Positions 2,608 to 59,947 of a DNA stretch of 59,947 nt are shown piece after piece; within the stretch, counting starts at the first letter, position 1; the number at the start of each line of letters is the position of its first letter. The notes below the pieces were generated by a model that was given only the letters and a program-made list of their open reading frames with translations, was not told the origin of the DNA and ran no database searches. The stretch is from the NCBI GenBank assembly GCA_000004985.1, contig GG738937.1; one strand, given 5' to 3'. This DNA comes from Naegleria gruberi. Its lineage: Eukaryota. A program made the translations under genes and the position numbers.

Positions 2608-2758
2608 CTTCAATTTTGTATACTTGATCACAATTCGAATTGATGAGACGAAACCTTGCTCTTTCCCTTGCAGATAAATTTAATAAAACATTAGAAACCA
2701 CTTCCGGTAAATTAAAAACAGAATAAATCTGCTTCTCTCCATCATCCTCTAATGACAT
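2608..2758 (-). CDS. F-box-like protein, N-terminal part; the rest is in the gap
   Basis: ATG at 2758. Translation MSLEDDGEKQIYSVFNLPEVVSNVLLNLSARERARFRLINSNCDQVYKIE shows the LPxE..L..L..R.i F-box pattern. The ORF stays open into the N-run. Confidence 0.45.
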
Positions 2759-2835
2759 TTTTTTATCCAAATTGTGACCAAGAATACAAAACACAAATAT
2801 TCGAAACTAAACTATTTATTCTTTGCATCATTGAT

Positions 2836-9251: not shown

Positions 9252-9279
9252 TATTTCTCTGAACACTTTTTCTGCCGAA

Positions 9280-14146: not shown

Positions 14147-15100
14147 ATGCTGTCGAATATTGATAATTTAACTGATGGGTTTCTTGTCATTTTAATCCTG
14201 GATTCGAATATTAAATCCGAAATGTTTTTTCGTAAATTATCTGGCAAGCCAAAGAAATATGAAGTGACTTTAATTGTACATACCATGCAAGGTTTCTCCC
14301 TCTTGGGAGGTAAAAACCACCTAAACATTATAGGATTTGATCTTGTAAGGAACAGAAATCAAATTACAAAACTTTTAGTCAACTTGATCAATTCCAATTT
14401 CAAACACAATACAACTGAAAACCCAATTCTAAAAATGGTTTCTATATTCGATTTGTGGGATCATAAACCAGTTGTTCTCGCAATTTTCTCAATTCATTTC
14501 AAAGAAAAACGTCAACCGTTGCGAGCTGTCAGTAAAAGATTAAGAAATGACAAGGAAGTTGTGATGGCAGCATTTGAAAAAGATTATTCACAGTTTAAAT
14601 ATGCTTCCAGTGAATTGAGAGCAGATAGAGAATTTGTATTATTACTTGCTAGAAGTTTTGGTGATATTGGACTAGTTCTTGAATATATTTCTTCTGATTT
14701 GACAAGTGACAAGGATTTTATGAGTGGTTTATTTGAAGCAGATTCTAAAGGTTTTGGATACTTTCCAATTGAATTAAGATCAGATAAGGATTTCGTTTTA
14801 CAAATTATTGGTAAATCTACTTATGATTTAAATTTGGAATTTCTAAGACATTTGAGTGACAATCTTAAAGCGGATAAGGAAATAGTGTTGAAAGCAGTTT
14901 TTCCTAATGAATATTCAACCCAACAGCTAGATATCTACCTTAATAATGATAGAGAAATAGCTCTGACAGCTGTCAGGAAGGAACGTTTGGTATTTCGATT
15001 TCTATCAAAAGAATTACAAAGCGATGAAGAAATTCAAAAGTATATGATTGAATCGTTTGGTAATGATCTTGTCAATTCCAAAAAAAGGAATAAAATCTAG
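14147..15100 (+). CDS. DUF4116 repeat-containing protein
   Basis: At least five tandem units of about 35 aa: DKEVVMAAFEKDYSQFKYASSELRADREFVLLLAR, DKDFMSGLFEADSKGFGYFPIELRSDKDFVLQII, DKEIVLKAVFPNE, DREIALTAVRKERLVFRFLSKELQSDEEI. ATG at 14147. An internal Met at about 14437 could be the true start. Confidence 0.6.
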   Translation: MLSNIDNLTDGFLVILILDSNIKSEMFFRKLSGKPKKYEVTLIVHTMQGFSLLGGKNHLNIIGFDLVRNRNQITKLLVNLINSNFKHNTTENPILKMVSIFDLWDHKPVVLAIFSIHFKEKRQPLRAVSKRLRNDKEVVMAAFEKDYSQFKYASSELRADREFVLLLARSFGDIGLVLEYISSDLTSDKDFMSGLFEADSKGFGYFPIELRSDKDFVLQIIGKSTYDLNLEFLRHLSDNLKADKEIVLKAVFPNEYSTQQLDIYLNNDREIALTAVRKERLVFRFLSKELQSDEEIQKYMIESFGNDLVNSKKRNKI

Positions 15101-20574: not shown

Positions 20575-20931
20575 ATGTCGCAAACAGTAGCAGCCACCAC
20601 AGAAGCTCCACAAAAGACTGCTGAGGAATTGGAAAAGGAAGAGGAATTACTGTTTGAAAAGGGACCACTCTCGTTATTGTTGGAAAGTGTTCGTGAACAA
20701 ACACAAATTTTAATTAGTTGTAGAAATAATAGAAAATTGTTGGCTAGAGTTAAAGCCTTTGATAGACACTGTAATATGGTATTGGAAAATGTACAGGAAA
20801 TGTGGACGGAACAACCAAAAAGTGGAAAGGGAAGAAAAAAGTCAAAGCCAATCAACAAGACACGTTTCACAAACAAGTTGTTTTTGAGAGGAGATTCTGT
20901 AATTTTAGTGTTGAGAAATCCAAAGAGATGA
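20575..20931 (+). CDS. SMD2: Small nuclear ribonucleoprotein Sm D2
   Basis: Single exon, 118 aa. [87 protein letters not shown] is near-collinear with metazoan and fungal SmD2, including the Sm1 and Sm2 motifs. It is divergently oriented to MED7, 264 bp away. Confidence 0.85.
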
Positions 20932-22527: not shown

Positions 22528-25500
22528 AAGACACTTATTGATGAGGATGACCTTGAAATATCTCTCCTATCATAATATTAATACAATGATAATGAGTGAA
22601 TTTATACAGCAATACTCTAATAACAATATCAAGGTGATTCTTGAGTGACTGATTACATTGTGGAGTGAACATTAACAACTTTCCCTCCAAAATTTCAAAG
22701 CCTTAAATTGTGATTACCACTAAAAAAATTGCCATCATCAAAACTACTGATTGACTACTCAACTACGTAACAATGTTTGAGCATAGTGCAAGGACTATCN
22801 NNNNNNNNNNNNNNNNNNNNNNNNNNNNNNNNNNNNNNNNNNNNNNNNNNNNNNNNNNNNNNNNNNNNNNNNNNNNNNNNNNNNNNNNNNNNNNNNNNNN
22901 NNNNNNNNNNNNNNNNNNNNNNNNNNNNNNNNNNNNNNNNNNNNNNNNNNNNNNNNNNNNNNNNNNNNNNNNNNNNNNNNNNNNNNNNNNNNNNNNNNNN
23001 NNNNNNNNNNNNNNNNNNNNNNNNNNNNNNNNNNNNNNNNNNNNNNNNNNNNNNNNNNNNNNNNNNNNNNNNNNNNNNNNNNNNNNNNNNNNNNNNNNNN
23101 NNNNNNNNNNNNNNNNNNNNNNNNNNNNNNNNNNNNNNNNNNNNNNNNNNNNNNNNNNNNNNNNNNNNNNNNNNNNNNNNNNNNNNNNNNNNNNNNNNNN
23201 NNNNNNNNNNNNNNNNNNNNNNNNNNNNNNNNNNNNNNNNNNNNNNNNNNNNNNNNNNNNNNNNNNNNNNNNNNNNNNNNNNNNNNNNNNNNNNNNNNNN
23301 NNNNNNNNNNNNNNNNNNNNNNNNNNNNNNNNNNNNNNNNNNNNNNNNNNNNNNNNNNNNNNNNNNNNNNNNNNNNNNNNNNNNNNNNNNNNNNNNNNNN
23401 NNNNNNNNNNNNNNNNNNNNNNNNNNNNNNNNNNNNNNNNNNNNNNNNNNNNNNNNNNNNNNNNNNNNNNNNNNNNNNNNNNNNNNNNNNNNNNNNNNNN
23501 NNNNNNNNNNNNNNNNNNNNNNNNNNNNNNNNNNNNNNNNNNNNNNNNNNNNNNNNNNNNNNNNNNNNNNNNNNNNNNNNNNNNNNNNNNNNNNNNNNNN
23601 NNNNNNNNNNNNNNNNNNNNNNNNNNNNNNNNNNNNNNNNNNNNNNNNNNNNNNNNNNNNNNNNNNNNNNNNNNNNNNNNNNNNNNNNNNNNNNNNNNNN
23701 NNNNNNNNNNNNNNNNNNNNNNNNNNNNNNNNNNNNNNNNNNNNNNNNNNNNNNNNNNNNNNNNNNNNNNNNNNNNNNNNNNNNNNNNNNNNNNNNNNNN
23801 NNNNNNNNNNNNNNNNNNNNNNNNNNNNNNNNNNNNNNNNNNNNNNNNNNNNNNNNNNNNNNNNNNNNNNNNNNNNNNNNNNNNNNNNNNNNNNNNNNNN
23901 NNNNNNNNNNNNNNNNNNNNNNNNNNNNNNNNNNNNNNNNNNNNNNNNNNNNNNNNNNNNNNNNNNNNNNNNNNNNNNNNNNNNNNNNNNNNNNNNNNNN
24001 NNNNNNNNNNNNNNNNNNNNNNNNNNNNNNNNNNNNNNNNNNNNNNNNNNNNNNNNNNNNNNNNNNNNNNNNNNNNNNNNNNNNNNNNNNNNNNNNNNNN
24101 NNNNNNNNNNNNNNNNNNNNNNNNNNNNNNNNNNNNNNNNNNNNNNNNNNNNNNNNNNNNNNNNNNNNNNNNNNNNNNNNNNNNNNNNNNNNNNNNNNNN
24201 NNNNNNNNNNNNNNNNNNNNNNNNNNNNNNNNNNNNNNNNNNNNNNNNNNNNNNNNNNNNNNNNNNNNNNNNNNNNNNNNNNNNNNNNNNNNNNNNNNNN
24301 NNNNNNNNNNNNNNNNNNNNNNNNNNNNNNNNNNNNNNNNNNNNNNNNNNNNNNNNNNNNNNNNNNNNNNNNNNNNNNNNNNNNNNNNNNNNNNNNNNNN
24401 NNNNNNNNNNNNNNNNNNNNNNNNNNNNNNNNNNNNNNNNNNNNNNNNNNNNNNNNNNNNNNNNNNNNNNNNNNNNNNNNNNNNNNNNNNNNNNNNNNNN
24501 NNNNNNNNNNNNNNNNNNNNNNNNNNNNNNNNNNNNNNNNNNNNNNNNNNNNNNNNNNNNNNNNNNNNNNNNNNNNNNNNNNNNNNNNNNNNNNNNNNNN
24601 NNNNNNNNNNNNNNNNNNNNNNNNNNNNNNNNNNNNNNNNNNNNNNNNNNNNNNNNNNNNNNNNNNNNNNNNNNNNNNNNNNNNNNNNNNNNNNNNNNNN
24701 NNNNNNNNNNNNNNNNNNNNNNNNNNNNNNNNNNNNNNNNNNNNNNNNNNNNNNNNNNNNNNNNNNNNNNNNNNNNNNNNNNNNNNNNNNNNNNNNNNNN
24801 NNNNNNNNNNNNNNNNNNNNNNNNNNNNNNNNNNNNNNNNNNNNNNNNNNNNNNNNNNNNNNNNNNNNNNNNNNNNNNNNNNNNNNNNNNNNNNNNNNNN
24901 NNNNNNNNNNNNNNNNNNNNNNNNNNNNNNNNNNNNNNNNNNNNNNNNNNNNNNNNNNNNNNNNNNNNNNNNNNNNNNNNNNNNNNNNNNNNNNNNNNNN
25001 NNNNNNNNNNNNNNNNNNNNNNNNNNNNNNNNNNNNNNNNNNNNNNNNNNNNNNNNNNNNNNNNNNNNNNNNNNNNNNNNNNNNNNNNNNNNNNNNNNNN
25101 NNNNNNNNNNNNNNNNNNNNNNNNNNNNNNNNNNNNNNNNNNNNNNNNNNNNNNNNNNNNNNNNNNNNNNNNNNNNNNNNNNNNNNNNNNNNNNNNNNNN
25201 NNNNNNNNNNNNNNNNNNNNNNNNNNNNNNNNNNNNNNNNNNNNNNNNNNNNNNNNNNNNNNNNNNNNNNNNNNNNNNNNNNNNNNNNNNNNNNNNNNNN
25301 NNNNNNNNNNNNNNNNNNNNNNNNNNNNNNNNNNNNNNNNNNNNNNNNNNNNNNNNNNNNNNNNNNNNNNNNNNNNNNNNNNNNNNNNNNNNNNNNNNNN
25401 NNNNNNNNNNNNNNNNNNNNNNNNNNNNNNNNNNNNNNNNNNNNNNNNNNNNNNNNNNNNNNNNNNNNNNNNNNNNNNNNNNNNNNNNNNNNNNNNNNNN

Positions 25501-28500
25501 NNNNNNNNNNNNNNNNNNNNNNNNNNNNNNNNNNNNNNNNNNNNNNNNNNNNNNNNNNNNNNNNNNNNNNNNNNNNNNNNNNNNNNNNNNNNNNNNNNNN
25601 NNNNNNNNNNNNNNNNNNNNNNNNNNNNNNNNNNNNNNNNNNNNNNNNNNNNNNNNNNNNNNNNNNNNNNNNNNNNNNNNNNNNNNNNNNNNNNNNNNNN
25701 NNNNNNNNNNNNNNNNNNNNNNNNNNNNNNNNNNNNNNNNNNNNNNNNNNNNNNNNNNNNNNNNNNNNNNNNNNNNNNNNNNNNNNNNNNNNNNNNNNNN
25801 NNNNNNNNNNNNNNNNNNNNNNNNNNNNNNNNNNNNNNNNNNNNNNNNNNNNNNNNNNNNNNNNNNNNNNNNNNNNNNNNNNNNNNNNNNNNNNNNNNNN
25901 NNNNNNNNNNNNNNNNNNNNNNNNNNNNNNNNNNNNNNNNNNNNNNNNNNNNNNNNNNNNNNNNNNNNNNNNNNNNNNNNNNNNNNNNNNNNNNNNNNNN
26001 NNNNNNNNNNNNNNNNNNNNNNNNNNNNNNNNNNNNNNNNNNNNNNNNNNNNNNNNNNNNNNNNNNNNNNNNNNNNNNNNNNNNNNNNNNNNNNNNNNNN
26101 NNNNNNNNNNNNNNNNNNNNNNNNNNNNNNNNNNNNNNNNNNNNNNNNNNNNNNNNNNNNNNNNNNNNNNNNNNNNNNNNNNNNNNNNNNNNNNNNNNNN
26201 NNNNNNNNNNNNNNNNNNNNNNNNNNNNNNNNNNNNNNNNNNNNNNNNNNNNNNNNNNNNNNNNNNNNNNNNNNNNNNNNNNNNNNNNNNNNNNNNNNNN
26301 NNNNNNNNNNNNNNNNNNNNNNNNNNNNNNNNNNNNNNNNNNNNNNNNNNNNNNNNNNNNNNNNNNNNNNNNNNNNNNNNNNNNNNNNNNNNNNNNNNNN
26401 NNNNNNNNNNNNNNNNNNNNNNNNNNNNNNNNNNNNNNNNNNNNNNNNNNNNNNNNNNNNNNNNNNNNNNNNNNNNNNNNNNNNNNNNNNNNNNNNNNNN
26501 NNNNNNNNNNNNNNNNNNNNNNNNNNNNNNNNNNNNNNNNNNNNNNNNNNNNNNNNNNNNNNNNNNNNNNNNNNNNNNNNNNNNNNNNNNNNNNNNNNNN
26601 NNNNNNNNNNNNNNNNNNNNNNNNNNNNNNNNNNNNNNNNNNNNNNNNNNNNNNNNNNNNNNNNNNNNNNNNNNNNNNNNNNNNNNNNNNNNNNNNNNNN
26701 NNNNNNNNNNNNNNNNNNNNNNNNNNNNNNNNNNNNNNNNNNNNNNNNNNNNNNNNNNNNNNNNNNNNNNNNNNNNNNNNNNNNNNNNNNNNNNNNNNNN
26801 NNNNNNNNNNNNNNNNNNNNNNNNNNNNNNNNNNNNNNNNNNNNNNNNNNNNNNNNNNNNNNNNNNNNNNNNNNNNNNNNNNNNNNNNNNNNNNNNNNNN
26901 NNNNNNNNNNNNNNNNNNNNNNNNNNNNNNNNNNNNNNNNNNNNNNNNNNNNNNNNNNNNNNNNNNNNNNNNNNNNNNNNNNNNNNNNNNNNNNNNNNNN
27001 NNNNNNNNNNNNNNNNNNNNNNNNNNNNNNNNNNNNNNNNNNNNNNNNNNNNNNNNNNNNNNNNNNNNNNNNNNNNNNNNNNNNNNNNNNNNNNNNNNNN
27101 NNNNNNNNNNNNNNNNNNNNNNNNNNNNNNNNNNNNNNNNNNNNNNNNNNNNNNNNNNNNNNNNNNNNNNNNNNNNNNNNNNNNNNNNNNNNNNNNNNNN
27201 NNNNNNNNNNNNNNNNNNNNNNNNNNNNNNNNNNNNNNNNNNNNNNNNNNNNNNNNNNNNNNNNNNNNNNNNNNNNNNNNNNNNNNNNNNNNNNNNNNNN
27301 NNNNNNNNNNNNNNNNNNNNNNNNNNNNNNNNNNNNNNNNNNNNNNNNNNNNNNNNNNNNNNNNNNNNNNNNNNNNNNNNNNNNNNNNNNNNNNNNNNNN
27401 NNNNNNNNNNNNNNNNNNNNNNNNNNNNNNNNNNNNNNNNNNNNNNNNNNNNNNNNNNNNNNNNNNNNNNNNNNNNNNNNNNNNNNNNNNNNNNNNNNNN
27501 NNNNNNNNNNNNNNNNNNNNNNNNNNNNNNNNNNNNNNNNNNNNNNNNNNNNNNNNNNNNNNNNNNNNNNNNNNNNNNNNNNNNNNNNNNNNNNNNNNNN
27601 NNNNNNNNNNNNNNNNNNNNNNNNNNNNNNNNNNNNNNNNNNNNNNNNNNNNNNNNNNNNNNNNNNNNNNNNNNNNNNNNNNNNNNNNNNNNNNNNNNNN
27701 NNNNNNNNNNNNNNNNNNNNNNNNNNNNNNNNNNNNNNNNNNNNNNNNNNNNNNNNNNNNNNNNNNNNNNNNNNNNNNNNNNNNNNNNNNNNNNNNNNNN
27801 NNNNNNNNNNNNNNNNNNNNNNNNNNNNNNNNNNNNNNNNNNNNNNNNNNNNNNNNNNNNNNNNNNNNNNNNNNNNNNNNNNNNNNNNNNNNNNNNNNNN
27901 NNNNNNNNNNNNNNNNNNNNNNNNNNNNNNNNNNNNNNNNNNNNNNNNNNNNNNNNNNNNNNNNNNNNNNNNNNNNNNNNNNNNNNNNNNNNNNNNNNNN
28001 NNNNNNNNNNNNNNNNNNNNNNNNNNNNNNNNNNNNNNNNNNNNNNNNNNNNNNNNNNNNNNNNNNNNNNNNNNNNNNNNNNNNNNNNNNNNNNNNNNNN
28101 NNNNNNNNNNNNNNNNNNNNNNNNNNNNNNNNNNNNNNNNNNNNNNNNNNNNNNNNNNNNNNNNNNNNNNNNNNNNNNNNNNNNNNNNNNNNNNNNNNNN
28201 NNNNNNNNNNNNNNNNNNNNNNNNNNNNNNNNNNNNNNNNNNNNNNNNNNNNNNNNNNNNNNNNNNNNNNNNNNNNNNNNNNNNNNNNNNNNNNNNNNNN
28301 NNNNNNNNNNNNNNNNNNNNNNNNNNNNNNNNNNNNNNNNNNNNNNNNNNNNNNNNNNNNNNNNNNNNNNNNNNNNNNNNNNNNNNNNNNNNNNNNNNNN
28401 NNNNNNNNNNNNNNNNNNNNNNNNNNNNNNNNNNNNNNNNNNNNNNNNNNNNNNNNNNNNNNNNNNNNNNNNNNNNNNNNNNNNNNNNNNNNNNNNNNNN

Positions 28501-31500
28501 NNNNNNNNNNNNNNNNNNNNNNNNNNNNNNNNNNNNNNNNNNNNNNNNNNNNNNNNNNNNNNNNNNNNNNNNNNNNNNNNNNNNNNNNNNNNNNNNNNNN
28601 NNNNNNNNNNNNNNNNNNNNNNNNNNNNNNNNNNNNNNNNNNNNNNNNNNNNNNNNNNNNNNNNNNNNNNNNNNNNNNNNNNNNNNNNNNNNNNNNNNNN
28701 NNNNNNNNNNNNNNNNNNNNNNNNNNNNNNNNNNNNNNNNNNNNNNNNNNNNNNNNNNNNNNNNNNNNNNNNNNNNNNNNNNNNNNNNNNNNNNNNNNNN
28801 NNNNNNNNNNNNNNNNNNNNNNNNNNNNNNNNNNNNNNNNNNNNNNNNNNNNNNNNNNNNNNNNNNNNNNNNNNNNNNNNNNNNNNNNNNNNNNNNNNNN
28901 NNNNNNNNNNNNNNNNNNNNNNNNNNNNNNNNNNNNNNNNNNNNNNNNNNNNNNNNNNNNNNNNNNNNNNNNNNNNNNNNNNNNNNNNNNNNNNNNNNNN
29001 NNNNNNNNNNNNNNNNNNNNNNNNNNNNNNNNNNNNNNNNNNNNNNNNNNNNNNNNNNNNNNNNNNNNNNNNNNNNNNNNNNNNNNNNNNNNNNNNNNNN
29101 NNNNNNNNNNNNNNNNNNNNNNNNNNNNNNNNNNNNNNNNNNNNNNNNNNNNNNNNNNNNNNNNNNNNNNNNNNNNNNNNNNNNNNNNNNNNNNNNNNNN
29201 NNNNNNNNNNNNNNNNNNNNNNNNNNNNNNNNNNNNNNNNNNNNNNNNNNNNNNNNNNNNNNNNNNNNNNNNNNNNNNNNNNNNNNNNNNNNNNNNNNNN
29301 NNNNNNNNNNNNNNNNNNNNNNNNNNNNNNNNNNNNNNNNNNNNNNNNNNNNNNNNNNNNNNNNNNNNNNNNNNNNNNNNNNNNNNNNNNNNNNNNNNNN
29401 NNNNNNNNNNNNNNNNNNNNNNNNNNNNNNNNNNNNNNNNNNNNNNNNNNNNNNNNNNNNNNNNNNNNNNNNNNNNNNNNNNNNNNNNNNNNNNNNNNNN
29501 NNNNNNNNNNNNNNNNNNNNNNNNNNNNNNNNNNNNNNNNNNNNNNNNNNNNNNNNNNNNNNNNNNNNNNNNNNNNNNNNNNNNNNNNNNNNNNNNNNNN
29601 NNNNNNNNNNNNNNNNNNNNNNNNNNNNNNNNNNNNNNNNNNNNNNNNNNNNNNNNNNNNNNNNNNNNNNNNNNNNNNNNNNNNNNNNNNNNNNNNNNNN
29701 NNNNNNNNNNNNNNNNNNNNNNNNNNNNNNNNNNNNNNNNNNNNNNNNNNNNNNNNNNNNNNNNNNNNNNNNNNNNNNNNNNNNNNNNNNNNNNNNNNNN
29801 NNNNNNNNNNNNNNNNNNNNNNNNNNNNNNNNNNNNNNNNNNNNNNNNNNNNNNNNNNNNNNNNNNNNNNNNNNNNNNNNNNNNNNNNNNNNNNNNNNNN
29901 NNNNNNNNNNNNNNNNNNNNNNNNNNNNNNNNNNNNNNNNNNNNNNNNNNNNNNNNNNNNNNNNNNNNNNNNNNNNNNNNNNNNNNNNNNNNNNNNNNNN
30001 NNNNNNNNNNNNNNNNNNNNNNNNNNNNNNNNNNNNNNNNNNNNNNNNNNNNNNNNNNNNNNNNNNNNNNNNNNNNNNNNNNNNNNNNNNNNNNNNNNNN
30101 NNNNNNNNNNNNNNNNNNNNNNNNNNNNNNNNNNNNNNNNNNNNNNNNNNNNNNNNNNNNNNNNNNNNNNNNNNNNNNNNNNNNNNNNNNNNNNNNNNNN
30201 NNNNNNNNNNNNNNNNNNNNNNNNNNNNNNNNNNNNNNNNNNNNNNNNNNNNNNNNNNNNNNNNNNNNNNNNNNNNNNNNNNNNNNNNNNNNNNNNNNNN
30301 NNNNNNNNNNNNNNNNNNNNNNNNNNNNNNNNNNNNNNNNNNNNNNNNNNNNNNNNNNNNNNNNNNNNNNNNNNNNNNNNNNNNNNNNNNNNNNNNNNNN
30401 NNNNNNNNNNNNNNNNNNNNNNNNNNNNNNNNNNNNNNNNNNNNNNNNNNNNNNNNNNNNNNNNNNNNNNNNNNNNNNNNNNNNNNNNNNNNNNNNNNNN
30501 NNNNNNNNNNNNNNNNNNNNNNNNNNNNNNNNNNNNNNNNNNNNNNNNNNNNNNNNNNNNNNNNNNNNNNNNNNNNNNNNNNNNNNNNNNNNNNNNNNNN
30601 NNNNNNNNNNNNNNNNNNNNNNNNNNNNNNNNNNNNNNNNNNNNNNNNNNNNNNNNNNNNNNNNNNNNNNNNNNNNNNNNNNNNNNNNNNNNNNNNNNNN
30701 NNNNNNNNNNNNNNNNNNNNNNNNNNNNNNNNNNNNNNNNNNNNNNNNNNNNNNNNNNNNNNNNNNNNNNNNNNNNNNNNNNNNNNNNNNNNNNNNNNNN
30801 NNNNNNNNNNNNNNNNNNNNNNNNNNNNNNNNNNNNNNNNNNNNNNNNNNNNNNNNNNNNNNNNNNNNNNNNNNNNNNNNNNNNNNNNNNNNNNNNNNNN
30901 NNNNNNNNNNNNNNNNNNNNNNNNNNNNNNNNNNNNNNNNNNNNNNNNNNNNNNNNNNNNNNNNNNNNNNNNNNNNNNNNNNNNNNNNNNNNNNNNNNNN
31001 NNNNNNNNNNNNNNNNNNNNNNNNNNNNNNNNNNNNNNNNNNNNNNNNNNNNNNNNNNNNNNNNNNNNNNNNNNNNNNNNNNNNNNNNNNNNNNNNNNNN
31101 NNNNNNNNNNNNNNNNNNNNNNNNNNNNNNNNNNNNNNNNNNNNNNNNNNNNNNNNNNNNNNNNNNNNNNNNNNNNNNNNNNNNNNNNNNNNNNNNNNNN
31201 NNNNNNNNNNNNNNNNNNNNNNNNNNNNNNNNNNNNNNNNNNNNNNNNNNNNNNNNNNNNNNNNNNNNNNNNNNNNNNNNNNNNNNNNNNNNNNNNNNNN
31301 NNNNNNNNNNNNNNNNNNNNNNNNNNNNNNNNNNNNNNNNNNNNNNNNNNNNNNNNNNNNNNNNNNNNNNNNNNNNNNNNNNNNNNNNNNNNNNNNNNNN
31401 NNNNNNNNNNNNNNNNNNNNNNNNNNNNNNNNNNNNNNNNNNNNNNNNNNNNNNNNNNNNNNNNNNNNNNNNNNNNNNNNNNNNNNNNNNNNNNNNNNNN

Positions 31501-34500
31501 NNNNNNNNNNNNNNNNNNNNNNNNNNNNNNNNNNNNNNNNNNNNNNNNNNNNNNNNNNNNNNNNNNNNNNNNNNNNNNNNNNNNNNNNNNNNNNNNNNNN
31601 NNNNNNNNNNNNNNNNNNNNNNNNNNNNNNNNNNNNNNNNNNNNNNNNNNNNNNNNNNNNNNNNNNNNNNNNNNNNNNNNNNNNNNNNNNNNNNNNNNNN
31701 NNNNNNNNNNNNNNNNNNNNNNNNNNNNNNNNNNNNNNNNNNNNNNNNNNNNNNNNNNNNNNNNNNNNNNNNNNNNNNNNNNNNNNNNNNNNNNNNNNNN
31801 NNNNNNNNNNNNNNNNNNNNNNNNNNNNNNNNNNNNNNNNNNNNNNNNNNNNNNNNNNNNNNNNNNNNNNNNNNNNNNNNNNNNNNNNNNNNNNNNNNNN
31901 NNNNNNNNNNNNNNNNNNNNNNNNNNNNNNNNNNNNNNNNNNNNNNNNNNNNNNNNNNNNNNNNNNNNNNNNNNNNNNNNNNNNNNNNNNNNNNNNNNNN
32001 NNNNNNNNNNNNNNNNNNNNNNNNNNNNNNNNNNNNNNNNNNNNNNNNNNNNNNNNNNNNNNNNNNNNNNNNNNNNNNNNNNNNNNNNNNNNNNNNNNNN
32101 NNNNNNNNNNNNNNNNNNNNNNNNNNNNNNNNNNNNNNNNNNNNNNNNNNNNNNNNNNNNNNNNNNNNNNNNNNNNNNNNNNNNNNNNNNNNNNNNNNNN
32201 NNNNNNNNNNNNNNNNNNNNNNNNNNNNNNNNNNNNNNNNNNNNNNNNNNNNNNNNNNNNNNNNNNNNNNNNNNNNNNNNNNNNNNNNNNNNNNNNNNNN
32301 NNNNNNNNNNNNNNNNNNNNNNNNNNNNNNNNNNNNNNNNNNNNNNNNNNNNNNNNNNNNNNNNNNNNNNNNNNNNNNNNNNNNNNNNNNNNNNNNNNNN
32401 NNNNNNNNNNNNNNNNNNNNNNNNNNNNNNNNNNNNNNNNNNNNNNNNNNNNNNNNNNNNNNNNNNNNNNNNNNNNNNNNNNNNNNNNNNNNNNNNNNNN
32501 NNNNNNNNNNNNNNNNNNNNNNNNNNNNNNNNNNNNNNNNNNNNNNNNNNNNNNNNNNNNNNNNNNNNNNNNNNNNNNNNNNNNNNNNNNNNNNNNNNNN
32601 NNNNNNNNNNNNNNNNNNNNNNNNNNNNNNNNNNNNNNNNNNNNNNNNNNNNNNNNNNNNNNNNNNNNNNNNNNNNNNNNNNNNNNNNNNNNNNNNNNNN
32701 NNNNNNNNNNNNNNNNNNNNNNNNNNNNNNNNNNNNNNNNNNNNNNNNNNNNNNNNNNNNNNNNNNNNNNNNNNNNNNNNNNNNNNNNNNNNNNNNNNNN
32801 NNNNNNNNNNNNNNNNNNNNNNNNNNNNNNNNNNNNNNNNNNNNNNNNNNNNNNNNNNNNNNNNNNNNNNNNNNNNNNNNNNNNNNNNNNNNNNNNNNNN
32901 NNNNNNNNNNNNNNNNNNNNNNNNNNNNNNNNNNNNNNNNNNNNNNNNNNNNNNNNNNNNNNNNNNNNNNNNNNNNNNNNNNNNNNNNNNNNNNNNNNNN
33001 NNNNNNNNNNNNNNNNNNNNNNNNNNNNNNNNNNNNNNNNNNNNNNNNNNNNNNNNNNNNNNNNNNNNNNNNNNNNNNNNNNNNNNNNNNNNNNNNNNNN
33101 NNNNNNNNNNNNNNNNNNNNNNNNNNNNNNNNNNNNNNNNNNNNNNNNNNNNNNNNNNNNNNNNNNNNNNNNNNNNNNNNNNNNNNNNNNNNNNNNNNNN
33201 NNNNNNNNNNNNNNNNNNNNNNNNNNNNNNNNNNNNNNNNNNNNNNNNNNNNNNNNNNNNNNNNNNNNNNNNNNNNNNNNNNNNNNNNNNNNNNNNNNNN
33301 NNNNNNNNNNNNNNNNNNNNNNNNNNNNNNNNNNNNNNNNNNNNNNNNNNNNNNNNNNNNNNNNNNNNNNNNNNNNNNNNNNNNNNNNNNNNNNNNNNNN
33401 NNNNNNNNNNNNNNNNNNNNNNNNNNNNNNNNNNNNNNNNNNNNNNNNNNNNNNNNNNNNNNNNNNNNNNNNNNNNNNNNNNNNNNNNNNNNNNNNNNNN
33501 NNNNNNNNNNNNNNNNNNNNNNNNNNNNNNNNNNNNNNNNNNNNNNNNNNNNNNNNNNNNNNNNNNNNNNNNNNNNNNNNNNNNNNNNNNNNNNNNNNNN
33601 NNNNNNNNNNNNNNNNNNNNNNNNNNNNNNNNNNNNNNNNNNNNNNNNNNNNNNNNNNNNNNNNNNNNNNNNNNNNNNNNNNNNNNNNNNNNNNNNNNNN
33701 NNNNNNNNNNNNNNNNNNNNNNNNNNNNNNNNNNNNNNNNNNNNNNNNNNNNNNNNNNNNNNNNNNNNNNNNNNNNNNNNNNNNNNNNNNNNNNNNNNNN
33801 NNNNNNNNNNNNNNNNNNNNNNNNNNNNNNNNNNNNNNNNNNNNNNNNNNNNNNNNNNNNNNNNNNNNNNNNNNNNNNNNNNNNNNNNNNNNNNNNNNNN
33901 NNNNNNNNNNNNNNNNNNNNNNNNNNNNNNNNNNNNNNNNNNNNNNNNNNNNNNNNNNNNNNNNNNNNNNNNNNNNNNNNNNNNNNNNNNNNNNNNNNNN
34001 NNNNNNNNNNNNNNNNNNNNNNNNNNNNNNNNNNNNNNNNNNNNNNNNNNNNNNNNNNNNNNNNNNNNNNNNNNNNNNNNNNNNNNNNNNNNNNNNNNNN
34101 NNNNNNNNNNNNNNNNNNNNNNNNNNNNNNNNNNNNNNNNNNNNNNNNNNNNNNNNNNNNNNNNNNNNNNNNNNNNNNNNNNNNNNNNNNNNNNNNNNNN
34201 NNNNNNNNNNNNNNNNNNNNNNNNNNNNNNNNNNNNNNNNNNNNNNNNNNNNNNNNNNNNNNNNNNNNNNNNNNNNNNNNNNNNNNNNNNNNNNNNNNNN
34301 NNNNNNNNNNNNNNNNNNNNNNNNNNNNNNNNNNNNNNNNNNNNNNNNNNNNNNNNNNNNNNNNNNNNNNNNNNNNNNNNNNNNNNNNNNNNNNNNNNNN
34401 NNNNNNNNNNNNNNNNNNNNNNNNNNNNNNNNNNNNNNNNNNNNNNNNNNNNNNNNNNNNNNNNNNNNNNNNNNNNNNNNNNNNNNNNNNNNNNNNNNNN

Positions 34501-37500
34501 NNNNNNNNNNNNNNNNNNNNNNNNNNNNNNNNNNNNNNNNNNNNNNNNNNNNNNNNNNNNNNNNNNNNNNNNNNNNNNNNNNNNNNNNNNNNNNNNNNNN
34601 NNNNNNNNNNNNNNNNNNNNNNNNNNNNNNNNNNNNNNNNNNNNNNNNNNNNNNNNNNNNNNNNNNNNNNNNNNNNNNNNNNNNNNNNNNNNNNNNNNNN
34701 NNNNNNNNNNNNNNNNNNNNNNNNNNNNNNNNNNNNNNNNNNNNNNNNNNNNNNNNNNNNNNNNNNNNNNNNNNNNNNNNNNNNNNNNNNNNNNNNNNNN
34801 NNNNNNNNNNNNNNNNNNNNNNNNNNNNNNNNNNNNNNNNNNNNNNNNNNNNNNNNNNNNNNNNNNNNNNNNNNNNNNNNNNNNNNNNNNNNNNNNNNNN
34901 NNNNNNNNNNNNNNNNNNNNNNNNNNNNNNNNNNNNNNNNNNNNNNNNNNNNNNNNNNNNNNNNNNNNNNNNNNNNNNNNNNNNNNNNNNNNNNNNNNNN
35001 NNNNNNNNNNNNNNNNNNNNNNNNNNNNNNNNNNNNNNNNNNNNNNNNNNNNNNNNNNNNNNNNNNNNNNNNNNNNNNNNNNNNNNNNNNNNNNNNNNNN
35101 NNNNNNNNNNNNNNNNNNNNNNNNNNNNNNNNNNNNNNNNNNNNNNNNNNNNNNNNNNNNNNNNNNNNNNNNNNNNNNNNNNNNNNNNNNNNNNNNNNNN
35201 NNNNNNNNNNNNNNNNNNNNNNNNNNNNNNNNNNNNNNNNNNNNNNNNNNNNNNNNNNNNNNNNNNNNNNNNNNNNNNNNNNNNNNNNNNNNNNNNNNNN
35301 NNNNNNNNNNNNNNNNNNNNNNNNNNNNNNNNNNNNNNNNNNNNNNNNNNNNNNNNNNNNNNNNNNNNNNNNNNNNNNNNNNNNNNNNNNNNNNNNNNNN
35401 NNNNNNNNNNNNNNNNNNNNNNNNNNNNNNNNNNNNNNNNNNNNNNNNNNNNNNNNNNNNNNNNNNNNNNNNNNNNNNNNNNNNNNNNNNNNNNNNNNNN
35501 NNNNNNNNNNNNNNNNNNNNNNNNNNNNNNNNNNNNNNNNNNNNNNNNNNNNNNNNNNNNNNNNNNNNNNNNNNNNNNNNNNNNNNNNNNNNNNNNNNNN
35601 NNNNNNNNNNNNNNNNNNNNNNNNNNNNNNNNNNNNNNNNNNNNNNNNNNNNNNNNNNNNNNNNNNNNNNNNNNNNNNNNNNNNNNNNNNNNNNNNNNNN
35701 NNNNNNNNNNNNNNNNNNNNNNNNNNNNNNNNNNNNNNNNNNNNNNNNNNNNNNNNNNNNNNNNNNNNNNNNNNNNNNNNNNNNNNNNNNNNNNNNNNNN
35801 NNNNNNNNNNNNNNNNNNNNNNNNNNNNNNNNNNNNNNNNNNNNNNNNNNNNNNNNNNNNNNNNNNNNNNNNNNNNNNNNNNNNNNNNNNNNNNNNNNNN
35901 NNNNNNNNNNNNNNNNNNNNNNNNNNNNNNNNNNNNNNNNNNNNNNNNNNNNNNNNNNNNNNNNNNNNNNNNNNNNNNNNNNNNNNNNNNNNNNNNNNNN
36001 NNNNNNNNNNNNNNNNNNNNNNNNNNNNNNNNNNNNNNNNNNNNNNNNNNNNNNNNNNNNNNNNNNNNNNNNNNNNNNNNNNNNNNNNNNNNNNNNNNNN
36101 NNNNNNNNNNNNNNNNNNNNNNNNNNNNNNNNNNNNNNNNNNNNNNNNNNNNNNNNNNNNNNNNNNNNNNNNNNNNNNNNNNNNNNNNNNNNNNNNNNNN
36201 NNNNNNNNNNNNNNNNNNNNNNNNNNNNNNNNNNNNNNNNNNNNNNNNNNNNNNNNNNNNNNNNNNNNNNNNNNNNNNNNNNNNNNNNNNNNNNNNNNNN
36301 NNNNNNNNNNNNNNNNNNNNNNNNNNNNNNNNNNNNNNNNNNNNNNNNNNNNNNNNNNNNNNNNNNNNNNNNNNNNNNNNNNNNNNNNNNNNNNNNNNNN
36401 NNNNNNNNNNNNNNNNNNNNNNNNNNNNNNNNNNNNNNNNNNNNNNNNNNNNNNNNNNNNNNNNNNNNNNNNNNNNNNNNNNNNNNNNNNNNNNNNNNNN
36501 NNNNNNNNNNNNNNNNNNNNNNNNNNNNNNNNNNNNNNNNNNNNNNNNNNNNNNNNNNNNNNNNNNNNNNNNNNNNNNNNNNNNNNNNNNNNNNNNNNNN
36601 NNNNNNNNNNNNNNNNNNNNNNNNNNNNNNNNNNNNNNNNNNNNNNNNNNNNNNNNNNNNNNNNNNNNNNNNNNNNNNNNNNNNNNNNNNNNNNNNNNNN
36701 NNNNNNNNNNNNNNNNNNNNNNNNNNNNNNNNNNNNNNNNNNNNNNNNNNNNNNNNNNNNNNNNNNNNNNNNNNNNNNNNNNNNNNNNNNNNNNNNNNNN
36801 NNNNNNNNNNNNNNNNNNNNNNNNNNNNNNNNNNNNNNNNNNNNNNNNNNNNNNNNNNNNNNNNNNNNNNNNNNNNNNNNNNNNNNNNNNNNNNNNNNNN
36901 NNNNNNNNNNNNNNNNNNNNNNNNNNNNNNNNNNNNNNNNNNNNNNNNNNNNNNNNNNNNNNNNNNNNNNNNNNNNNNNNNNNNNNNNNNNNNNNNNNNN
37001 NNNNNNNNNNNNNNNNNNNNNNNNNNNNNNNNNNNNNNNNNNNNNNNNNNNNNNNNNNNNNNNNNNNNNNNNNNNNNNNNNNNNNNNNNNNNNNNNNNNN
37101 NNNNNNNNNNNNNNNNNNNNNNNNNNNNNNNNNNNNNNNNNNNNNNNNNNNNNNNNNNNNNNNNNNNNNNNNNNNNNNNNNNNNNNNNNNNNNNNNNNNN
37201 NNNNNNNNNNNNNNNNNNNNNNNNNNNNNNNNNNNNNNNNNNNNNNNNNNNNNNNNNNNNNNNNNNNNNNNNNNNNNNNNNNNNNNNNNNNNNNNNNNNN
37301 NNNNNNNNNNNNNNNNNNNNNNNNNNNNNNNNNNNNNNNNNNNNNNNNNNNNNNNNNNNNNNNNNNNNNNNNNNNNNNNNNNNNNNNNNNNNNNNNNNNN
37401 NNNNNNNNNNNNNNNNNNNNNNNNNNNNNNNNNNNNNNNNNNNNNNNNNNNNNNNNNNNNNNNNNNNNNNNNNNNNNNNNNNNNNNNNNNNNNNNNNNNN

Positions 37501-39655
37501 NNNNNNNNNNNNNNNNNNNNNNNNNNNNNNNNNNNNNNNNNNNNNNNNNNNNNNNNNNNNNNNNNNNNNNNNNNNNNNNNNNNNNNNNNNNNNNNNNNNN
37601 NNNNNNNNNNNNNNNNNNNNNNNNNNNNNNNNNNNNNNNNNNNNNNNNNNNNNNNNNNNNNNNNNNNNNNNNNNNNNNNNNNNNNNNNNNNNNNNNNNNN
37701 NNNNNNNNNNNNNNNNNNNNNNNNNNNNNNNNNNNNNNNNNNNNNNNNNNNNNNNNNNNNNNNNNNNNNNNNNNNNNNNNNNNNNNNNNNNNNNNNNNNN
37801 NNNNNNNNNNNNNNNNNNNNNNNNNNNNNNNNNNNNNNNNNNNNNNNNNNNNNNNNNNNNNNNNNNNNNNNNNNNNNNNNNNNNNNNNNNNNNNNNNNNN
37901 NNNNNNNNNNNNNNNNNNNNNNNNNNNNNNNNNNNNNNNNNNNNNNNNNNNNNNNNNNNNNNNNNNNNNNNNNNNNNNNNNNNNNNNNNNNNNNNNNNNN
38001 NNNNNNNNNNNNNNNNNNNNNNNNNNNNNNNNNNNNNNNNNNNNNNNNNNNNNNNNNNNNNNNNNNNNNNNNNNNNNNNNNNNNNNNNNNNNNNNNNNNN
38101 NNNNNNNNNNNNNNNNNNNNNNNNNNNNNNNNNNNNNNNNNNNNNNNNNNNNNNNNNNNNNNNNNNNNNNNNNNNNNNNNNNNNNNNNNNNNNNNNNNNN
38201 NNNNNNNNNNNNNNNNNNNNNNNNNNNNNNNNNNNNNNNNNNNNNNNNNNNNNNNNNNNNNNNNNNNNNNNNNNNNNNNNNNNNNNNNNNNNNNNNNNNN
38301 NNNNNNNNNNNNNNNNNNNNNNNNNNNNNNNNNNNNNNNNNNNNNNNNNNNNNNNNNNNNNNNNNNNNNNNNNNNNNNNNNNNNNNNNNNNNNNNNNNNN
38401 NNNNNNNNNNNNNNNNNNNNNNNNNNNNNNNNNNNNNNNNNNNNNNNNNNNNNNNNNNNNNNNNNNNNNNNNNNNNNNNNNNNNNNNNNNNNNNNNNNNN
38501 NNNNNNNNNNNNNNNNNNNNNNNNNNNNNNNNNNNNNNNNNNNNNNNNNNNNNNNNNNNNNNNNNNNNNNNNNNNNNNNNNNNNNNNNNNNNNNNNNNNN
38601 NNNNNNNNNNNNNNNNNNNNNNNNNNNNNNNNNNNNNNNNNNNNNNNNNNNNNNNNNNNNNNNNNNNNNNNNNNNNNNNNNNNNNNNNNNNNNNNNNNNN
38701 NNNNNNNNNNNNNNNNNNNNNNNNNNNNNNNNNNNNNNNNNNNNNNNNNNNNNNNNNNNNNNNNNNNNNNNNNNNNNNNNNNNNNNNNNNNNNNNNNNNN
38801 NNNNNNNNNNNNNNNNNNNNNNNNNNNNNNNNNNNNNNNNNNNNNNNNNNNNNNNNNNNNNNNNNNNNNNNNNNNNNNNNNNNNNNNNNNNNNNNNNNNN
38901 NNNNNNNNNNNNNNNNNNNNNNNNNNNNNNNNNNNNNNNNNNNNNNNNNNNNNNNNNNNNNNNNNNNNNNNNNNNNNNNNNNNNNNNNNNNNNNNNNNNN
39001 NNNNNNNNNNNNNNNNNNNNNNNNNNNNNNNNNNNNNNNNNNNNNNNNNNNNNNNNNNNNNNNNNNNNNNNNNNNNNNNNNNNNNNNNNNNNNNNNNNNN
39101 NNNNNNNNNNNNNNNNNNNNNNNNNNNNNNNNNNNNNNNNNNNNNNNNNNNNNNNNNNNNNNNNNNNNNNNNNNNNNNNNNNNNNNNNNNNNNNNNNNNN
39201 NNNNNNNNNNNNNNNNNNNNNNNNNNNNNNNNNNNNNNNNNNNNNNNNNNNNNNNNNNNNNNNNNNNNNNNNNNNNNNNNNNNNNNNNNNNNNNNNNNNN
39301 NNNNNNNNNNNNNNNNNNNNNNNNNNNNNNNNNNNNNNNNNNNNNNNNNNNNNNNNNNNNNNNNNNNNNNNNNNNNNNNNNNNNNNNNNNNNNNNNNNNN
39401 NNNNNNNNNNNNNNNNNNNNNNNNNNNNNNNNNNNNNNNNNNNNNNNNNNNNNNNNNNNNNNNNNNNNNNNNNNNNNNNNNNNNNNNNNNNNNNNNNNNN
39501 NNNNNNNNNNNNNNNNNNNNNNNNNNNNNNNNNNNNNNNNNNNNNNNNNNNNNNNNNNNNNNNNNNNNNNNNNNNNNNNNNNNNNNNNNNNNNNNNNNNN
39601 NNNNNNNNNNNNNNNNNNNNNNNNNNNNNNNNNNNNNNNNNNNNNNNNNNNNNNN

Positions 39656-49448: not shown

Positions 49449-50371
49449 ATTCGATGATTCAAAGTGTCAACAATCAAAATCTCATTATTCAAACCCAATG
49501 CAACACTATTTGGATAATTCAATTTGGCACTTGTAGCCAAACCACCATCCCCACTCAATCCTGCAGTTCCAGTTCCTGCAATTGTTGTAATCTTTCCATT
49601 TTTAGAAATCTTTCTAATTCTGTGATTTCTAGAATCAGCAAAAATAATTTCACCAATTGAGTTGATGATTATTCCCTTTGGATTGAAGAGTTTGGCTGAA
49701 ACTGCATTTCCATTATCACCAGAGTATCCAGAACTTCCATAAACTCCAGCAATTGTTACAATAGTTCCATTAAGATAGACCTTTCGAATAACATTGTTAT
49801 TTGTATCTGAAATGATGACTTCTGCAGTTGAAGAATTGACGGCAAGATATTGTGGAGAATTAAGTGTGGTATTTGTTGCTAATGAGTTACTGTACTTGTT
49901 CAATTCAGTTTCACCTGCAATTCCAGCAATTGTTGTGATCTTTCCATTGAGAGCCGAAACCTTTCTAATAACATGATTAGACTTATCTGCAATATAGACA
50001 TCACCATTAGAATGAACAGCAACACCACTTGGAAAATTCAACTCTGCATTAATTGCCAAACCGCCATCACCACTAAATGATGAAGAACCAATACCAGCAA
50101 TTGTTGAAATAACGCCACTACTTGAAAACGAAACCTTTCGAATTCTGTGATTAAACGAATCAGCAATTAATAAATCACCATTATACATGGCCATACCAGA
50201 TGGATAGTTCAACAAGGCATTGGTTGAAATCAACCCATCACCAATAAAACTTCCTCCTCCAACAATTGTTGAAATATTGTTAAAAGAAAGTGCGCTCAAT
50301 TGGTGAATTAGAGAACAGCAAATCACAAATAGAAATAGGAACGACAATAGAGAGGCGGTGCCAGCAGTCAT
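49449..50371 (-). CDS. Secreted NHL-repeat protein, N-terminal part; continues into the gap
   Basis: ATG at 50371. A signal-peptide-like start MTAGTASLLSFLFLFVICCSLIHQLSALS is followed by at least six NHL units such as YPSGVAVHSNGDVYIADKSNHVIRKV and ITTIAGTGTAGLSGDGGLATSAKLNYPNSVALGLNNEILIVDTLNHR. No intron over 920 bp. Confidence 0.7.
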
Positions 50372-50748
50372 TGTGTAAAATCCTCTTGGAGAGTTCAACT
50401 GAAGCTCTGTTATTTTTTTTCTTTCATGTCGTTCACTAATCGACCTCAAATTTTAATGAAAAGTGATGGTTGTGTTCCATGTTTAATCATTTGAATGTCC
50501 ATATTTGAGAGCTTTAATACAATCTTTAATTTTTCAATGGATGATATCAATCATGTTTTGTAACAGAGTTGATTAGAATGTCAACGACTGATTTAACCTT
50601 TAATATTCTCGTCCTTTAAACCTTAAAGCTCTTGTTCAAGCTGCTTGTGTATTTCTTCCAATTATTCACATTTTCGAGAGGTTGTACATGATGAAAGCAC
50701 CAAACTTTCACAACATGATATAAATAGAACAGAAGCAATTATCATCAC

Positions 50749-51415: not shown

Positions 51416-52916
51416 GGAAGACCTTACTACCGAATTAAACAACCTCAAAGGAGCCAAATCTAAAATCCAATCAGCCATCGGCATTCTCTTCTCAGCAGCA
51501 GGAAATATGACCTCAACCATTGCTAAAAGACAAAAGCAAGCAGATAAAATCCAGAGCACCATTGATGGTCTGGAATCGGAGGTTGATATTATTGGTAAAA
51601 GATGTAAACATTATGGTGGTGAGGATTGTGATATTGCTTGTGCAGAGGGACGGAGAGGATATGATTGCTTAGCTCCAGTGTGTGATTCCAAATGTTCAAT
51701 ATGTGAATCGCCAGGTAATTGTTCTCAATGTTCAACAAATCATGATGGTGCCACCTGTTCTTTGTGTAAGACAGGATGGACTGGTGCTACTTGTTCAACC
51801 CCAGTATGTGATTCCAAATGTACAACATGTGGATCTCCTTCTGTTTGCTCAGTTTGTTCTGGTAATTATGATGGGACAACTTGTTCAATATGTAAAACTG
51901 GATGGTCTGGCATCACATGTTCAACACCGGTTTGTGATTCCAAATGTACAACCTGTGCATCTCCTGGTGTTTGCTCAGTTTGTTCTGGTAATTGGCAAGG
52001 ATCTACATGTTCCACATGTAAGACAGGATGGACAGGAGCAACTTGTTCAACACCAATTTGTGATTCCAAATGTACAACATGTGCATCTCCTGGTCAGTGT
52101 TCTGTGTGTTCTGCTGGTTGGACAGGAGCAACTTGTTCAACACCAGTTTGTGATTCTAAATGTACAACATGTACATCTCCTGGTCAGTGTTCTGTGTGTT
52201 CTTCTGGTTGGACAGGAGCAACTTGTTCAACACCAGTATGTGATTCCAAATGTACAACATGTACATCTCCTGGTGTTTGCTCAGTTTGTTCTGGTAACTG
52301 GGATGGTCCTTCATGTTCTGTGTGTAAAACTAGTTGGACAGGTTCATCTTGCAATCTCGCTCTTGGTGATTTTGCAAACTCACCATTATTCTCCGCTAGT
52401 TATGGAGCTAGGTTGATCACATCTATTTTGAGTGGCGTTATGAAGAAAACACCAACCAGACTCTATAGAGCCATGGGAAATGGCTATCATCCTTACGCGT
52501 TCCATAATGCCTGCAATGGTTATTCTTCAACAGTTACAATTGTGAAAACATCAGCAGGAGCCGTATTTGGTGCCTATCTAAGCATTCCATGGGAAGATTA
52601 TAATGCTGGGGATATAAGAATTCTCAAGACATTTTCAGATCCTAATGCATTTCTATTTAGTATGGTAACATCGAGCGGTGTGGAGAGATTTGTGAAATTG
52701 GGTTATTCTGGAGCTGTTGGACAAACTGTTACATACAATTTTATAACACATCCATTGTTTGGAGCGTCGGATATTTATTTGGGACAAGGGATGAGCTTTC
52801 AGCCAGCACCTGATGCTTATTCGAAACCAGCAACTTTTCAACCTTTGGAACCTAACTGGAGTTATGGAACTACATATTCATTCACTGTTTCTGATTATGA
52901 AGTGTATAGTGTTTAA
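51416..52916 (+). CDS. Coiled-coil segment, then a Cys-rich repeat array (furin-like/EGF-like CxxC repeats), then a C-terminal TLDc domain
   Basis: About eight units of the form CSTPVCDSKCTTCASPGVCSVCSGNWQGSTCSTCKTGWTGAT. C-terminal LYRAMGNGYHPYAFHNACNGYSSTVTIVKTSAGAVFGAYLSIPWED...NAFLFSM...LFGASDIYLG fits the TLDc consensus (LLYRgSRDGfsa.aFH.kCDgkg.TvtviKt..G.vFGGYts..W....FLFSL). Stop at 52914-52916. Confidence 0.7.
51620..52360 (+). repeat. Tandem coding repeats, 123-bp period, about 41 aa per Cys-rich unit
   Basis: acttgttcaacaccagt(a/t)tgtgattccaaatgtacaacatgt... recurs with high identity. This explains the out-of-frame ORFs in the track at 51682-52416 and 51866-52069, which are artefacts of the repeat. 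Confidence 0.75.
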
Positions 52917-59308: not shown

Positions 59309-59912
59309 ATGCCTCCACAACATCACCTAACTGATCTTCCTCCTGAACTTTTACGGCACATTCTCGAATTTCTCATCATTGCAAATCCACTCCTCGCCCG
59401 ATCAGAGAAAAATATCAAAAATTTATGTAACTTGGAATTAATTTCTAAACAATTTGGAGAAAATTTTCAAAATTTATTGGAAAATTATTGGAAGATTATT
59501 TTGTTTCAATTTATTAATCTCCGATTGGAAGTGAAGAATGGACGAGAAGTGGTGAATTCAATTAATGTGCATGATCATTGGAAAAAGAAAGACGAAATTG
59601 TGGAGAAATTAAAGATGAAATCGAATAAGAGAATTTTTGGAATTTTGAAGGAGGCAGAAAGGAGGAGAAAGGACCAATTTTCAATTTCAGATCCCTATTC
59701 GAAAAGAGATGTTTTTAAACTTTGTGTTAGTGGACCAGGAGGGTCAGGTATTCATTCCTTCATCAATCGATATTTAAATGATCAATTCAATGAACAATAT
59801 GATTATTCGTTGGATGAAGTATTTTATAAGAATGTTCAATTTAATGAAACAGAATTGAAATTGGAAATTTGGGAAAATGGTTTCAGAAATGATTATTACA
59901 TGTTTCATGAAT
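59309..59912 (+). CDS. F-box domain fused to a Ras-like small GTPase domain with a degenerate P-loop. First exon only; GTAAGT donor at 59913
   Basis: ATG at 59309. F-box LTDLPPELLRHILEFL. Then KLCVSGPGGSGIHSFINRYLNDQFNEQYDYSLDEVFYKNVQFNETELKLEIWENGFRNDYY aligns residue for residue with Ras [60 protein letters not shown]. In it GKS becomes GIHS and DTAGQ becomes ENGFR. The exon ends at MFHE followed by gtaagt. G4 and G5 would lie beyond the window. Confidence 0.6.
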
Positions 59913-59947
59913 GTAAGTTTAATGATCTAAATTGTTTATGAATCAAT

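Follow-up and report, generated by a model that had tools for sequence, protein, structure and literature searches.

An F-box-like protein of Naegleria gruberi with a predicted Ras fold and degenerate nucleotide-binding motifs

The Naegleria gruberi NEG-M scaffold analysed here (59,947 nt; the whole stretch is hereafter called the window) ends within a gene in which an F-box-like N-terminal region, a linker and a Ras-like G domain are joined in one polypeptide, and in which the G1, G2 and G3 motifs of the G domain are all altered. The loss of these motifs, together with the pattern of their conservation, points to a pseudoGTPase. The architecture as such has already been described for the genus, and an annotation of the gene exists; what is new is the F-box-like head on members of the subgroup curated as 'Ras' and the existence of a conserved clade of putative pseudoGTPases under selection. 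With modest confidence, we lean towards the view that the protein would act as a farnesylated, membrane-tethered Skp1/SCF adaptor with a pseudoGTPase binding module.

The gene is located on the plus strand and begins with an ATG at 59309-59311, from which an uninterrupted frame runs through 59912. This exon 1 (59309..59912) comprises 201 codons plus 1 base, and is followed by the first 35 nt (59913..59947) of a 50-nt phase 1 intron with a GTAAGT donor at 59913-59918. The window carries only exon 1 (201 aa) of the two-exon gene, which is truncated because the window represents the entire scaffold and stops inside the intron. The GenBank entry for the 201-aa product is XP_002668897.1, 'small GTPase, partial' (identical to P0154). 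A full-length twin, XP_002678448.1 (341 aa), named 'ras family small GTPase (RAP-1)', is encoded on a 502-kb scaffold, and its exon 1 part is identical to the window product. A protein k-mer search with the window product recovered three fragments, all from one metagenome sample; a second k-mer search, with the family alignment, added nothing useful, and a literature search on the metagenome project PRJEB11402 found no papers. Metagenome contig L001 shares 97.3% DNA identity with the window over 814 nt and contains the 50-nt phase 1 intron followed by an in-frame 421-nt exon 2 ending with TGA, the spliced product being 341 aa long. Exon 2 (L001 831-1252), which lies outside the window, encodes the G4 motif NKID, the G5 motif ETSCK, a C-terminal helix and the CaaX sequence CSIS. 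The complete gene was thus obtained from L001 and XP_002678448.1, both of which bear out the original prediction that it runs past the window end after the donor at 59913.

The position and phase of the intron are identical in the paralogs on contigs L002, L003 and L004 and are therefore common to four paralogs. The F-box-like and Ras-like segments, predicted to belong to one gene, lie within one exon; the assignment of the two parts to separate genes was rejected in view of the single ORF and the intron phase conserved in the four paralogs. In L001, a tRNA-His (GTG) gene occupies 1325-1396, starting about 70 nt after the full-length gene's stop codon. A minus-strand stretch at the end of L004 (about 2220-2278) also has a tRNA-like look but was not called by ARAGORN, perhaps owing to truncation.

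Most of the scaffold consists of gaps or masked sequence, as 34,048 of the 59,947 positions (57%) are N bases, arranged in 11 runs within 1215-58853, of which 22800-39655 is the largest; the non-N sequence has a GC content of 33%. The interpretable parts contain genes of several other types. An ORF fragment at 2608-2794 (minus strand), ending at an N run and containing ...IYSVFNLPEVVSNVLLNLSARERARFRLINSNCDQVY, looks F-box-like by eye and has no Pfam match at E ≤ 0.001. A pentatricopeptide-repeat protein gene (7887-9266, minus strand; PPR_2, 120.6 bits) is accompanied by nearly identical pentatricopeptide repeats extending into the N run 5915-7770. The plus strand encodes a protein of seven DUF4116 repeats (14147-15097; 134.5 bits), a Sm/LSM-domain protein (20575-20928; 58 bits) resembling snRNP Sm D2 by eye, and a protein of Cys-rich EGF-like repeats with a C-terminal TLDc domain (51417-52913), which is cut by an N run, as is the NHL-repeat protein at 49451-50452 on the minus strand.

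The N-terminal part of the Ras-like G domain, from beta1 to switch II, is encoded at 59711..59912 (plus strand; residues 135-201). Exon 1 alone scores 24.2 bits against Pfam Ras (PF00071; curated cut-off 21.6 bits) over profile positions 1-56, and the spliced 341-aa protein scores 62.7 bits over positions 1-158 of 162, so that both exceed the cut-off and the protein matches the family profile over the whole domain. In phmmer searches of the PDB, Rab3, Rap1 and Ral chains match at E about 1e-12, the top sequence matches being divided between Rab3 and Rap1/Ral. The predicted alignment with Ras/Rap from G1 through switch II agrees with the Pfam match and with the alignments to Rap1A and Rab3. The original prediction had allowed for a chance partial similarity should the downstream exon lack G4 and G5; both NKID and ETSCK are present there in L001 and XP_002678448.1, so the similarity to Ras concerns the whole domain, and a chance match is also ruled out by the full-length Pfam match. 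The AF2 model of the protein (pLDDT 81, pTM 0.69) superposes on Rap, Ral and KRas, with Foldseek TM(target) values of 0.83-0.87 and E about 1e-11 against RalA, Rap1 and KRas, and the G domain is predicted to have a Ras fold.

Alignment to H-Ras, Rap1A and Rab3 reveals the replacements K16→I, S17→H, T35→S and D57-T-A-G-Q61→E-N-G-F-R. The P-loop, GPGGSGIHS, is encoded at 59732..59758 (plus strand; residues 142-150, placed by alignment to Rap1A and H-Ras) and departs from GxxxxGK[S/T] in that Ile takes the place of Lys16 and His that of Ser17. Switch I (G2), YDYSLDEVF, at 59798..59824 (plus strand), has Ser in place of Thr35. In switch II (59873..59887, plus strand; residues 189-193) the G3 sequence DTAGQ is replaced by ENGFR, whereby DxxG is lost and the Gln61 equivalent is Arg. 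The replacement of the invariant P-loop Lys and the ENGFR substitution had both been predicted, and the alignments place them at these residues. A one-residue insertion in the P-loop, which would convert Lys to His and retain Ser, was rejected since the ungapped alignment keeps the F28 spacing and the hydrophobic pattern of helix 1; the P-loop Lys is absent under either alignment. The F28 equivalent, NKID and the S-C-K of G5 are kept in this paralog.

Two further N. gruberi proteins, XP_002680544.1 (encoded on L002) and XP_002668642.1 (identical to P0156, with its exon 1 on L003), are about 55% identical to this gene. At this level of overall identity, GPGGSGIH and G-F-R are invariant in the three paralogs, and the G3 counterparts in the other two are DSGFR and ETGFR. 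XP_002680544.1 and XP_002668642.1 have also lost N116 and K117 (SQID and TQID). The fourth paralog, on L004, has GMSGSGVKS, RNGSA and NKID and ends with CILS. A search for paralogs of the fusion, suggested together with the original prediction, therefore did find N. gruberi genes with the same layout and intron phase. G1, G2 and G3 are altered in every member of the clade and G4 in two of the four full-length paralogs, a degree of motif loss characteristic of pseudoGTPases. The prediction of a pseudo-GTPase, or of a GTPase with unusual nucleotide handling, is consistent with replacements that are real, conserved among paralogs and under purifying selection.

The retention of NKID, the F28 equivalent and the G5 S-x-K in this paralog would leave room for some guanine-nucleotide binding. 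In such a case His or Ser of the non-canonical P-loop would take over the phosphate contacts while NKID, F28 and S-C-K hold the base, and the domain would operate as a slow or constitutively loaded switch with nucleotide-dependent capture of partners. The P-loop sequence is strictly conserved rather than decayed, and the P-loop block is confidently placed in the AF2 model (pLDDT about 90), both of which favour this possibility. However, Lys16, Ser17, Asp57-x-x-Gly60 and Gln61 are all replaced together, and the sister paralogs with SQID and TQID keep the same P-loop in spite of the loss of N116 and K117, so the conserved loop probably does not serve nucleotide binding. A working switch of this kind is considered distinctly improbable. 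The 'nucleotide-state-dependent degron reader' of the original prediction is a speculation, and it is the least likely for this particular clade because the residues binding phosphate and Mg are missing. The motif pattern fits better with a pseudoGTPase.

Comparison of the L001 copy with the paralog on L002 gave an overall ratio of non-synonymous to synonymous substitutions (dN/dS) of 0.22; the G domain has the same value (0.22) and the F-box part a lower one (0.16). These values are rough because dS is 1.1-2.0 and thus near saturation. They indicate that the genes of the clade are constrained by purifying selection and are not decaying. On the opposite view, the locus would be an artefact or a copy in decay, without a function of its own, either a product of birth-and-death pseudogenisation or a haplotype scaffold end duplicating the XP_002678448.1 locus. 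Such an origin would account for a whole scaffold that halts 35 nt into an intron and for the identical exon 1 protein on the 502-kb scaffold, and birth-and-death evolution with disrupted copies is reported for related Naegleria clades by Herman et al. 2021 (PMC8296547). There is also a paralog fragment from the same metagenome sample (L006 306-938) that keeps the F-box-like head and linker, then lacks any recognisable P-loop, and is followed by GTAAGT; it is either a pseudogene or a family member that has degenerated strongly. Nevertheless, the ORF is intact both here and in the second strain, with three synonymous differences and one non-synonymous difference in exon 1 between them, the full-length twin and the paralogs are likewise intact with the intron phase conserved and dN/dS about 0.2, and even as a haplotype duplicate the locus would represent the same functional gene. 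We therefore regard a functionless copy as very unlikely. The gene located upstream of the L002 paralog (L002 1-657) ends in a segment that appears RGS-like by eye (…RRSYCTEDILAFRDIETFK…).

The F-box-like region (59327..59512, plus strand; residues 7-68) was delimited using Pfam, hhalign and the AF2 helices at 12-24, 33-49 and 51-68. It starts with the F-box string LTDLPPELLRHILEFL (residues 7-22) and comprises helix 1 (LPPELLRHILEFL), an insertion of about 12 residues, helix 2 (LCNLELISKQF) and helix 3 (ENYWKIIL). The isolated N-terminus scores 19.2 bits against Pfam F-box (PF00646; curated cut-off 20.5 bits) and 18.5 bits against F-box-like (PF12937; 24.3 bits), and with the full or exon 1 protein as the query both scores are 14-16 bits, below the cut-offs in each case. 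At the family level the similarity is clearer. When 18 N-termini of the family were scanned one at a time, Pfam F-box-like was matched by 12 of them (best E 2.4e-7) and F-box by five, and a Willaertia relative without the loop insertion (P0045) passes the F-box-like threshold with 26.2 bits versus 24.3. When the family N-termini were aligned by hhalign to a manually entered reference set of ten canonical F-boxes, the match had a probability of 94% (E 1.4e-7), covered 45 columns including all three helices and placed the insertion of about 12 residues after helix 1. The LP-x-E-[IL]-[IL] start and a later Trp are nearly invariant across the family N-termini. The profile of N-termini matched PDB sequences weakly, with FBXL2 (E 0.17) and FBXL5 (E 0.63) among the hits, and structure searches with the N-terminal model returned only generic helical repeats. 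The region had originally been described as a clean F-box; the string and the homology at the family level stand, while in this protein the Pfam score falls short of the cut-off.

These observations allow two readings of the N-terminus. It may be an F-box remnant or lookalike that does not bind Skp1; it would then be a helical extension peculiar to the family, unconnected with ubiquitination, through which the Ras-like domain is regulated, localised or dimerised. The sub-threshold Pfam scores in this protein, the merely generic structural matches and the insertion between helices 1 and 2 agree with this, as does the fact that curators of the Naegleria Ras superfamily flagged the F-box on Rab rows and not on these 'Ras' rows. 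On the other hand, the hhalign match spans all three F-box helices, relatives without the insertion exceed the Pfam cut-off, the start motif and the Trp are nearly invariant, and purifying selection acts on the segment (dN/dS 0.16), so that a remnant or lookalike seems somewhat unlikely. As judged from these profile comparisons, the N-terminus is probably a diverged F-box with putative Skp1 binding.

The linker (59513..59710, plus strand; residues 69-134) consists, according to alignments and the AF2 model, of a beta-hairpin (strands 71-76 and 79-84) plus two helices (94-101 and 106-125), and includes a K-x-x-KR-x-F-x-IL helix that is conserved in the family. The distance between the F-box and the Ras-like domain, predicted to be about 100 residues, was approximate, as the P-loop lies about 135 residues from the start of the F-box and the G domain about 67 residues from its end.

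A HMMER search with the exon 1 profile against 1.84 billion representative sequences yielded only 11 matches at E ≤ 1e-10, and the top matches share the N-terminus, linker, Ras domain and CaaX. Every named relative comes from N. gruberi, N. fowleri, N. lovaniensis or Willaertia magna. This distribution indicates that the family is restricted to Naegleria and Willaertia (Heterolobosea). The family, a derivative of the Ras family, has a common layout, namely, an F-box-like three-helix head, a linker of about 65 residues, a Ras-fold G domain, a C-terminal helix and a CaaX. The canonical G1-G5 motifs are kept in most relatives and lost in the N. gruberi clade that holds this gene. The full-length protein ends, outside the window, with CSIS, a CaaX sequence predictive of prenylation; the clade ends are CSIS, CLLS and CILS, and those of the relatives CGLM, CLLQ, CLFM and CYLQ. 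A CaaX with Ser at the X position points to farnesylation.

Fusions of this general type are known from the genus. Herman et al. 2021 (PMC8296547) re-annotated more than 350 Ras-superfamily genes of N. gruberi; according to Additional file 4 of that study, no other accessory domain is as frequent as the F-box, which accompanies G domains of the Rab, Rho, Ran and Galpha types. The same source describes three Naegleria-specific Rab-like subgroups with an N-terminal F-box, one of which has a CaaX, and its authors proposed 'GTPase-dependent ubiquitination'. The gene described here resembles these fusions in its genus, in the N-terminal F-box (recognised at the family level) preceding a Ras-superfamily G domain, in its lineage-specific expansion and in its CaaX (CSIS), a feature of one of the Rab-like subgroups, and so falls within the definition of the published fusions. 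It differs in that the published F-box flags concern Rab, Rho, Ran and Galpha; in Table S8 of PMC8296547 XP_002678448.1, XP_002668642.1 and XP_002680544.1 are listed under 'Ras' with no F-box flag, and this gene is accordingly not a member of the three Rab-like F-box subgroups. The curated XP_002680544.1 model lacks the F-box part because it begins at Met109 (PMC8296547). Many models in the N. gruberi 'Ras' rows of Table S8 have an LP-x-E-I-L...F-W start and a CaaX end, none with an F-box flag there. The F-box-like head may, on the basis of these rows, be common across the Naegleria Ras expansion. The available part of the supplement contains no mention of P-loop degeneration (PMC8296547).

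In Euglenozoa, TbFRP is a FYVE–F-box–Ras-like GTPase for which its authors found no Naegleria orthologue (PMC3593210). Like the Naegleria gene, it places an F-box upstream of a Ras-like G domain in a Discoba lineage and relies on a separate module for membrane targeting (PMC3593210). Unlike the CaaX found here, however, its membrane module is an N-terminal FYVE (PI3P), and the two fusions are set side by side by architecture, not by homology. The architecture had been predicted to be unusual, but it is not new, given the fusions already reported in Naegleria (PMC8296547) and TbFRP (PMC3593210). Overall, the observation behind the original prediction is confirmed and its interpretation is supported in part, while the novelty of the architecture was overstated. 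Members of the ARF family fused to F-box or BTB have been noted as well. Rab40b-Cul5 and RhoBTB-Cul3 likewise pair a domain of GTPase fold with an adaptor for a cullin, Rab40 (Rab plus SOCS box) and RhoBTB (atypical Rho plus BTB) having the small-GTPase fold and a cullin-RING adaptor motif in one polypeptide (PMC13236570), and RhoBTB shares the atypical state of the G domain (PMC4812663). In those proteins, by contrast, the adaptors are of the SOCS/Cul5 and BTB/Cul3 types and lie C-terminal to the G domain, whereas the F-box is of the Skp1/Cul1 type; they are metazoan or Dictyostelium families and not homologous fusions.

Human FBXL2 combines an F-box with a C-terminal CaaX and is an SCF receptor tethered to the membrane. 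The same combination is found in Legionella AnkB, a CaaX-anchored F-box protein (PMC7542358). In both, the substrate-binding modules are LRR or ankyrin repeats, in contrast to the Ras fold present here. The G domain itself can be compared with pG1/pG2 of p190RhoGAP (PMC5593906) and with AAGAB (PMC12490416), which, in the available parts of those papers, are pseudoGTPases shown biochemically not to bind nucleotide, with a Ras-like fold that has lost G motifs and serves as a protein-interaction module. Unlike these, the N. gruberi protein is assigned to the pseudoGTPases from sequence alone and partly retains G4 and G5.

The reading that we prefer, a membrane-tethered adaptor, can be outlined as follows. 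Farnesylation at CSIS would place the protein on a membrane, and the F-box-like head would bring in Skp1 and, via Skp1, Cul1-Rbx1. The Ras-like domain, presumably devoid of nucleotide binding and hydrolysis and no longer acting as a GTP/GDP switch, would be a fixed protein-binding module for a substrate or partner, which could then be ubiquitinated. The outcome would be an SCF receptor anchored to a membrane and based on a pseudoGTPase, a putative Cul1-type counterpart to Rab40/Cul5 and RhoBTB/Cul3.

A broader and, in our estimate, unlikely extension is that much of the Ras expansion of Naegleria (about 80 genes) consists of prenylated SCF receptors in which the Ras G domain is the substrate-recognition module, the canonical members being GTP-gated and the GPGGSGIH clade representing a frozen switch that binds constitutively or acts as a decoy. 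If this were true, the canonical members would capture effectors only when loaded with GTP, resulting in GTP-gated ubiquitination at membranes, and the Ras expansion would acquire a new reading, since the published curation, in its available part, carries no F-box flag on the 'Ras' rows. The practical impact of the finding is limited by the poor genetics of Naegleria, by the existing annotation of the gene and by a function that is predicted only. Its biological interest lies in extending the F-box–GTPase theme of the Naegleria Rab, Rho, Ran and Galpha proteins to the large Ras-family expansion. Within this expansion, purifying selection has maintained the F-box-like head, linker and CaaX of one N. 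gruberi clade while the nucleotide-phosphate machinery has been discarded, and this clade may therefore be considered a natural experiment on the role of the Ras fold after its switch function ends.
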